Positions 7,649 to 8,552 are shown, numbered from the stretch's first letter. The stretch: 39,472 nucleotides of DNA from a virus (IMGVR_UViG_2695420732_000023); one strand, 5' to 3'. Notes: generated by a model from the sequence alone, not told the origin. Made by a program: numbers and translations.

Positions 7649-8201
7649 GCATCACTGGAAAGTAGAAAAACAGCCTGAGTGGTACGTGAAAGCTGTCAGA
7701 AAAACTATCGCAGCGTTGCCGGGGGGTTACGCTGAAGCTGCTGACTGGCTGGATGTAACAGAGAACGCATTATTTAACCGCCTTCGTGCCGATGGCGATC
7801 AGATTTTCCCGCTGGGATGGGCAATGATTTTGCAACGTGCTGGTGGAACTCACTTCATTGCTGACGCTGTGGCGCAGTCTGCAAATGGCGTCTTTGTGTC
7901 TCTTCCTGATGTCGAGGATGTGGACAACGCCGATATCAACCAACGCCTGCTGGAGGTCATTGAACAGATCGGCAGTTATTCAAAACAGATTCGTTCAGCA
8001 ATTGAAGACGGTGTAGTGGAACCGCATGAGAAGACAGCAATTAACGACGAGCTGTACCTCTCAATTTCGAAGCTGCAGGAGCATGCAGCACTGGTCTACA
8101 AAATTTTTTGCATTTCAGAAAGTAATGACGCCCGCGAGTGTGCAGCTCCGGGCGCCGTGGCGTGGCGTGTCGTGACTGTGGAGAAACTAACGCATGAATA
8201 G
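7641..8201 (+). CDS. CII-like / YdaT-type regulatory protein
   Basis: 186-aa ORF immediately after cro with GTG start preceded by AGGAGGTGA; position and size typical of CII-like (Phage_CP76/YdaT) proteins; assignment by context and recall. Confidence 0.5.
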
Positions 8202-8552
8202 TTTAACAACACACTACCGTCGCTCGCAACTGATTGCGCTTCCTGTACCGGGTGGAAAAGCGAAGGTGGAGTATTGCTATGCAGTAAATGTACCAGGTGG
8301 CAGGGTAATTGTAACCCACAGCTTTGCAGAGTGGGCTGTGGGTGATTTTAACCGGCAAAAGGAGACAGTCCTTTGCGACAAGTTAACCGCTGGTTCAAAG
8401 ATCACTACGGAGTGCCCGTCAGAGTCATTCGTTGGGAGCCGGAAACACAACGGGTTATCTACCTCCGCGAAGGCTATGAGCATGAATGCTTCAGTCCGCT
8501 CGAACAGTTTCGTCGTAAATTCAGGGAAATAGAGGTCGGTCATGAGCACTAA
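8194..8552 (+). CDS. hypothetical gene with apparent frame disruption (frame 1 from 8194, protein-like continuation in another frame 8352/8373..8552)
   Basis: track ORF 8194..8532 has a serine-rich non-protein-like tail, while the other frame reads [56 protein letters not shown] up to 8552; switch near AAAAGG at 8357-8362. Confidence 0.3.

Follow-up and report, generated by a model that had tools for sequence, protein, structure and literature searches.

The locus analyzed here raises the question of whether the interval between a CII-like regulatory gene and a replication gene of a phage holds one gene disrupted by a shift of frame or two genes that share the same DNA. The window, namely the whole stretch of DNA that was analyzed (39,472 nucleotides from the virus IMGVR_UViG_2695420732_000023), contains at this point an immunity and replication region of the e14/SfII/SfIV lambdoid type. 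Among complete E. coli genomes, 2,694 of 5,426 carry prophages of this type that match the window, and a related locus at about 75% identity is found in Klebsiella phages. The region comprises a cI-like repressor gene on the minus strand (6598-7290), a cro-like gene (7388-7648), the ymfL gene on the plus strand (7641-8201), which encodes a CII/CP76-like regulator recognized by the Pfam Phage_CP76 model and by the NCBIfam YmfL equivalog (168 bits), the ymfM ORF (8194-8532, plus strand) and, beyond it, a replication initiator-like gene of the O/primosomal type on the plus strand (8542-9483; 313 aa) with a Pfam HTH_36 match. The ymfM ORF occupies the position between ymfL and the replication gene that is typical of the e14-type immunity region, begins at an ATG within an overlap with the end of ymfL (ATGAATAG), and specifies a protein of 112 aa homologous to b1148 of K-12, the 'cell division inhibitor YmfM' (SfiC). 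Within the replication gene, at 8845-8919, there are five to six direct repeats with a 15-nt spacing (TCAAAATCTGACNCR), which look like origin iterons within an initiator gene, by analogy with the lambda ori. An Rfam 'mir-5880' match on these repeats, the sole match in a scan of 7300-9000, was set aside as a chance match, and a promoter and terminator scan of the window region gave results no better than those from shuffled sequences.

The sequence-only reading had described the ORF starting at 8194 as protein-like for about 50 codons and then degenerating into a serine-rich tail, had noted a second frame that reads as convincing protein across the same DNA, and had offered a recent frameshift, a sequencing error in a homopolymer or two small overlapping genes as explanations. 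When the sequence and the ORF list were re-read, every one of these features was found in place. The second frame has a TAA at 8349-8351 and is then open to the TAA at 8550-8552, the AAAAGG run lies at 8357-8362 beside an AAGGAG ribosome-binding site and the TTG at 8373, and the second ORF extends past the replication ATG at 8542. Serine is likewise abundant in the tail, with 11 Ser among the 52 positions of residues 61-112 as counted on the sequence. Hence, the earlier observation is correct, and it is its interpretation that proves mostly wrong. Three samples of related loci were compared. One locus per species was drawn from a genome collection, giving 37 loci from about 12 genera; the comparative set consisted of 42 loci from about 12 enterobacterial genera; and a near-identical set comprised 80 IMG/VR loci of the E. 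coli type.

The second frame corresponds to a gene of the DUF4222 family (8373-8552, plus strand; 59 aa), with a TTG start and a TAA stop at 8550-8552. Its product is matched by the Pfam model PF13973 with E=8.6e-19 and 67.3 bits against a cut-off of 27, and the match spans residues 2-53, which align with positions 3-52 of the 53 in the model. More than 130 homologues of 59-70 aa, all named DUF4222, were recovered that line up from a common Met, and in 27 of them this Met was found to coincide with the start used here. The Shine-Dalgarno sequence AAGGAG (8359-8364, plus strand) lies 8 nt upstream of the TTG, inside the K-E codons of ymfM. Across the 42 loci the gene begins with ATG in 31, GTG in seven and TTG in four, and an SD-like 4-mer is present within 18 nt upstream of the start in 37 of these loci. 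Cross-species comparisons gave a pN of about 0.14 against a pS of about 0.69, and only two protein variants were seen among the 80 near-identical loci. The AlphaFold model shows a five-strand barrel with a helix (pLDDT 84), and the product is accordingly predicted to be a small SH3/Tudor-like beta-barrel. Taken together, the family match, the codon-level conservation and the shared start signals suggest that DUF4222 is most likely a real protein-coding gene that is independently initiated at the AAGGAG/TTG. In the minimum free energy fold of this segment (8358-8375), the SD of DUF4222 (AAAGGA) is paired, in a hairpin of 6 bp, with a UCCUUU overlapping the TTG. In this folding model, initiation at DUF4222 could come to depend on the passage of ribosomes that translate ymfM; over the 101-nt region that was folded, the structure is not significant (z=-1.3).

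The ymfM ORF shows a different form of conservation in its two parts. As a whole, the protein is about 96% identical to K-12 b1148, with which it aligns end to end, both being of 112 aa; it is matched over residues 1-112 by phrog_1170 (E=2e-68), and homologues of 112-117 aa reach down to about 48% identity. The ORF is intact in 79 of the 80 E. coli-type loci, and an ORF of 108-114 aa is present in 35 of the 37 genomes of different species. The 112-aa ORF is thus conserved at full length in its own frame, which the earlier reading had itself named as the refuting observation, and a recent frameshift or pseudogene is thereby refuted. The N-terminal domain (8194-8364, plus strand; about 56 codons) is under protein-level purifying selection. 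At least three sequence types of this domain were distinguished among the 37 species loci, with pN/pS values of 0.49, 0.33 and 0.46 in types A, B and C respectively, and profile comparisons with hhalign recovered the types as homologous with probabilities of 96%, 95% and 73%. The domain also occurs by itself, as proteins of 53-68 aa in the Yersinia phage YeP3, in other lineages and in several distant representatives. Its AlphaFold model, which is of low confidence (pLDDT 54-72), contains beta strands and helices. Searches of YmfM against the Pfam and NCBIfam models gave no match, and the matches of the N-terminal domain to large repeat proteins in a representative search look spurious, as they fall in Ig-like and Y_Y_Y repeats. 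This fast-evolving domain of about 56 residues is likely to be the effector of the SfiC/YmfM family.

The remainder of YmfM is a tail of 52 codons (8374-8529, plus strand), which amounts to the DUF4222 gene read in the +1 frame. The two genes overlap by 160 nt, the DUF4222 frame being -1 relative to that of ymfM. Beyond the N-terminal domain the protein-like character is lost, as the earlier reading had perceived: pN/pS in the ymfM frame rises to 1.15-1.63, the 80 near-identical loci contain 22 variants of the tail as against the two of DUF4222, and residues 68-112 are predicted to be disordered (pLDDT 31-44). The synonymous rate in DUF4222 (pS 0.69) equals that in the neighbouring replication gene (0.69), which implies that the second frame adds no extra constraint, synonymous sites being saturated between lineages. 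Thus, the search for amino-acid constraint on the tail found no lowered synonymous rate in DUF4222 and no low pN/pS for the ymfM frame.

Despite this lack of amino-acid constraint, the ymfM frame across DUF4222 is free of stop codons in all 42 loci. A model in which the DUF4222 protein is held fixed and its codons are redrawn from the usage of this window yields an expectation of about 1.9 (1.92) stops, against none observed, and a chance of 0.02-0.17 per locus, or about 0.07, that the frame stays open. With shared ancestry handled by clustering, the joint probability of the open frame is about 10^-12.5 for 11 conservative clusters, split at pS >0.5, and about 10^-3.5 if only three clusters are admitted, these values depending on the window-derived codon-usage model and on the ancestry clustering. 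The avoidance is visible in individual codons. Val, Leu and Ile codons ending in A or G, which create a stop in the ymfM frame when they precede a codon starting with A, were used at none of the 86 positions of this kind, as against 34 of 117 positions where they are harmless. When five alternative frames were compared, the +1 frame alone departed from expectation. The Serratia BZS1-type clade, in which DUF4222 occurs without an entering upstream ORF, carries one to four stops in the +1 frame, and in the YeP3-type clade one stop has been acquired in six of 32 distinct sequences. Where DUF4222 is entered by other upstream ORFs, the +1 frame is stop-free in 15 of 16 cases. The synonymous-codon simulations, the five-frame comparison and the clades that lack an entering ORF together rule out the open frame as a by-product of composition or codon bias. 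In the overlap region, therefore, the DUF4222 frame is under purifying selection for its amino acids, and the ymfM frame displays stop avoidance without amino-acid constraint; DUF4222 and the YmfM N-terminal domain are selected at the amino-acid level, and the tail is selected against stop codons only. On these comparative patterns, the overlap is best described as dual-translated rather than dual-encoded in the usual sense, and related phages in many bacterial genera appear to keep it by selection.

The point at which the ymfM frame ends is also conserved. The spacer between the ymfM stop and the following ATG is 9 nt for the majority of the 37 species loci, 6 nt for two and longer for one. 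Together with an SD-like motif, the stop makes up a TA(G/A)-AGG that shares the frame of the following ATG; in the window this junction (8530-8544, plus strand) reads TAG-AGG-TCG-GTC-ATG, with the ymfM stop, the SD-like AGG and the replication start in a single reading frame. The position of the stop holds over at least five unrelated types of downstream gene, and the C-terminus of DUF4222 varies, giving proteins of 59-86 aa. DUF4222 itself ends in the window 20 nt beyond the end of ymfM, its stop being 8 nt after the replication ATG, such that the replication gene start overlaps its last 11 nt. Related stop layouts occur in more distant loci; in a locus of a more distant type (L129) the replication ATG precedes the ymfM stop by 8 nt, and the two are in different frames.

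Other layouts also occur among the relatives. The usual stop of the ymfM frame is missing in SfV, ST64B and a Citrobacter braakii prophage, where the frame continues into the next gene. In the loci L125 (SfV, 1352-2188), L126 (ST64B, 1358-2515) and L042, the ymfM-type frame is open for 130-230 codons more, crossing a conserved stretch that does not read as protein (…GRYTVQAPYKAGAGIGV…MVGRAGASKDAP…) into a Rha-like or other gene, and the long ORF of the SfV/ST64B type is annotated as a single 'transcriptional regulator' of 278 or 385 aa (orf37, sb41). In the Yersinia YeP3-type phages the stop of the N-domain gene forms an ATGA overlap at the DUF4222 start, indicating that the tail is dispensable in some lineages. 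In most of the YeP3-like loci (L135-L176, at about 960-1250 of the locus) the frame re-opens directly after the TGA, and some 90 codons follow before it closes near the replication start; this could represent a recent truncation with a relic open frame, or it may reflect read-through or re-initiation. A further set of loci (L199-L215; for example L201, 876-1262) has an ORF of 128 aa whose N-terminal part is unrelated (MAWGKKKAEQLQLVGNHFSNWEFCNEQPDCYRYVG…); this ORF, too, passes through DUF4222 in the +1 frame, its end lying 79 nt downstream of that gene. The running of an upstream gene into DUF4222 may thus be a recurrent design.

The above analysis suggests that the interval contains two functional genes overlapping out of frame, with the ribosomes that translate ymfM crossing DUF4222 and with DUF4222 starting independently, a reading to which we assign a probability of roughly 80% on the comparative evidence. 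The third of the original suggestions, two small overlapping genes, survives in the part that concerns the TTG start and its AAGGAG; the upstream gene, however, is no short ORF with a marginal overlap, its frame being held open actively for about 52 codons across DUF4222. As to why the frame should be held open, the selected property is plausibly a run of translation that continues unbroken from ymfM to the replication start. Ribosomes that enter by way of the coupled ymfL-ymfM chain would traverse DUF4222 out of frame, terminate on the ribosome-binding site of the replication gene and re-initiate there by termination-reinitiation coupling, as the geometry of the junction suggests; the passing ribosomes may also modulate access to the DUF4222 start. 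The sequence of the tail would then be immaterial and the outcome a disordered appendage. We put forward only tentatively this picture of the tail as a 'translational bridge' of 52 codons selected for openness alone, along with the linked proposal that filamentation could be due partly or wholly to DUF4222, or to the N-terminal domain alone. Several observations weigh against the coupling. DUF4222 also ends at the replication start, and a non-overlapping chain from ymfM through DUF4222 to the O-type gene would seemingly be equally workable; the N-terminal domain lacks the tail in the YeP3-type phages; the frame runs on in SfV, ST64B and Citrobacter braakii; the stop of L129 is in a different frame; and the tail is interrupted in one of the 80 E. 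coli-type loci.

The main rival to coupling is that the tail is kept as YmfM's own protein extension, a disordered Ser/Thr-rich segment for which any sequence would serve in solubility, spacing, turnover or localisation. The predicted disorder of the tail, its Ser/Thr/Ala/Gly-rich composition across lineages and the conserved length of the protein (108-117 aa) are all consistent with such a role, and it was the full ORF of 112 aa that gave the published phenotype. However, pN/pS exceeds 1 and the synonymous rate of DUF4222 is not lowered, stand-alone N-terminal domains of 53-68 aa exist, the composition of the tail is an automatic product of the DUF4222 codons, and the stop tracks the start of the next gene rather than a fixed tail length. 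We accordingly treat an extension of this kind as possible and, on balance, doubtful.

A more radical view would hold that DUF4222 is the sole gene of the interval, with the 112-aa ORF a spurious shadow and ymfM of K-12 a mis-annotation. Existing annotation lends this some appeal, as PGAP calls only DUF4222 (WP_001250269.1) on DNA identical to the window, leaving 8194-8372 empty, and does likewise in a near-identical record; moreover, YmfM lacks a Pfam or NCBIfam match, and its tail does behave as an off-frame shadow. This view is nevertheless very unlikely given the purifying selection on the N-terminal domain in three sequence types, the presence of its homologues across genera, including stand-alone small proteins, the placement of the ymfM start in a coupled ATGA/ATGAATAG overlap with ymfL, and a stop avoidance that is highly non-random and peculiar to the ymfM frame. 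The converse omission is seen in K-12 and in several phage records, where YmfM is annotated and DUF4222 is not. There are thus two mutually exclusive traditions, in which K-12, UniProt-derived and phage records carry ymfM only and PGAP carries DUF4222 only, and this split touches thousands of prophages in E. coli, Shigella, Klebsiella, Enterobacter and Citrobacter. PHROGs contains both, as phrog_1170 and phrog_1343. A further profile, phrog_20047, is of 63 aa and matches the N-terminal part only; database proteins of this length (P0064, P0068 and P0078) are frameshift variants that enter the third frame. On the minus strand an antisense ORF of 90 aa (8277-8549) covers DUF4222, and its counterpart is called as a CDS in the Klebsiella phage ST101-KPC2phi6.3. 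This ORF is free of stops in 37 of 41 loci; as openness by chance has a probability of 0.56 per locus, it was rejected as a shadow ORF.

Programmed -1 frameshifting, which would join the YmfM N-terminal domain to DUF4222 in the manner of lambda G/GT or dnaX, accords with the DUF4222 frame being correctly -1 relative to ymfM and with the A-rich stretch that adjoins an SD-like sequence in the window. This is where the earlier reading had placed a 'switch' of frame, near AAAAGG, and no conserved slippery heptamer is found to back it: an X_XXY_YYZ heptamer is present in only seven of 42 loci and at scattered positions, the A-run is not conserved, several loci have a stop in the DUF4222 frame 0-6 nt before the DUF4222 start, the local RNA fold is not significant, and the further 52 open codons of the zero frame would be left unexplained, all of which makes such a mechanism exceedingly improbable. 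An ancestral fusion of the N-terminal domain with DUF4222 that was recently frameshifted into a pseudogene, or split by a sequencing error in the A-run, is almost certainly not the explanation, since the rare in-frame fusions in the databases (P0063, P0060, P0032 and P0053) are limited to a single contig or a small cluster, with that of P0063 owing to an extra G in a G-run of a single Logan contig, and alignment with homologous prophage genes shows two frames rather than a single uninterrupted ORF in every one of the 42 diverged loci and likewise across thousands of E. coli genomes, with DUF4222 having its own start codon everywhere and commonly an SD-like sequence, an in-frame stop 0-54 nt upstream of that start in most loci, and AGAA replacing the AAAA run both in K-12 and in the alignment's majority consensus. 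In short, pseudogene and sequencing error are both rejected at this locus, and a conserved slippery site is absent.

The true frameshift of this neighbourhood is in the adjacent gene, ymfL. Here CGTGG is tandemly duplicated at 8156-8165 relative to strain SEC470 and most relatives (551 versus 546 bases). The duplication shifts the last 10 or so codons away from the usual C-terminus, CRDCGETNA, and moves the stop from an ATGA overlap to the TAG at 8199-8201. In an identical record (NZ_CP193495), PGAP labels ymfL as 'frameshifted'.

The preferred reading of two overlapping genes has consequences for the phenotype assigned to ymfM. The cloned K-12 ymfM ORF in pBAD24 (Ansari et al.) causes filamentation, and expression of YmfM blocks Z-ring formation, both for the K-12 clone only (bioRxiv 10.1101/2020.11.19.390815). 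Earlier screens recovered fragments that spanned ymfL to ymfN. Our search of the literature found no paper linking ymfM with DUF4222 or with an overlapping frame, ymfM being handled as a single gene. If the annotated ORF was what was cloned, the clone probably also holds DUF4222 from its SD and TTG through 53 of the 59 codons, and with these the entire Pfam domain, and a deletion of ymfM would remove DUF4222 too. Since the published clone and the deletion would affect both genes, either product could lie behind the ymfM phenotype. The hypervariable N-terminal domain is more likely to be the inhibitor than DUF4222, a judgement, rather than a result, drawn by analogy with the small, fast-evolving host-targeting proteins typical of the class.

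Several wider points follow. The assignment of ymfM to the SfiC division-inhibition phenotype came after 35 years, and the DNA used probably carries two genes; on the two-gene view the effector becomes directly testable by three point mutations that leave the protein of the other frame unchanged. The locus also offers a clean natural example of an ORF segment selected only against stops, and as such bears on the origin of overlapping genes, by loss of stops and then maintenance, and on the chaining of translation in phage early operons. Both genes are already in the databases, and what is new is how their overlap is maintained and the ambiguity of the phenotype.

Among known systems, the closest is the e14 locus of K-12 itself, whose ymfM (b1148, the SOS-inducible SfiC) is accompanied by the same cI-like repressor, cro-like gene, ymfL and replication gene and contains the same embedded TTG-initiated DUF4222 ORF. 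The two differ in that the replication gene of e14 is a chimeric remnant (ymfN), whereas that of the window is intact at 313 aa; in the N-terminal domain, which has GGRVIV in the window and GDREIV in K-12; and in the DUF4222-frame TAA at 8349-8351, which is present in the window and absent in K-12. Deep sequencing of K-12 has detected an abundant cis-antisense sRNA, ECS003, of 116 nt (about 70 nt on Northern blot), which faces the ymfL/ymfM junction and the ymfM ribosome-binding site (PMC3175480). By homology it would correspond to about 8100-8215 of the window on the minus strand, a position reminiscent of the lambda OOP RNA opposite cII; a consensus scan of this strand at about 8100-8215 found no promoter or terminator. 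The DUF4222 gene in turn resembles the prophage proteins of PF13973 in having the full-length domain, in 59 aa here, and in lying directly upstream of a replication gene.

Coupling of termination to re-initiation is familiar from polycistronic operons of phages and bacteria whose genes meet at an ATGA or across a short spacer, and the locus shares such junctions at both ends of ymfM, with the ymfL stop lying over the ymfM start and the ymfM stop 9 nt before the replication ATG. It differs in that the coupling ORF, as read here from the geometry, would have to pass out of frame through the entire length of an independent gene, and we know of no described example of a coupling ORF that crosses an independent gene to reach a re-initiation site. 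Overprinted gene pairs are equally well known in phages, as in Rz/Rz1 of lambda and the D/E and A/B/K genes of phiX174. Like these, ymfM and DUF4222 are ORFs on one strand in different frames, each with its own start, and their overlap is conserved among relatives. The known pairs, however, have products that are both constrained in sequence, whereas at ymfM the overlapping part displays only the avoidance of stops, and DUF4222 is not fully embedded in its partner.
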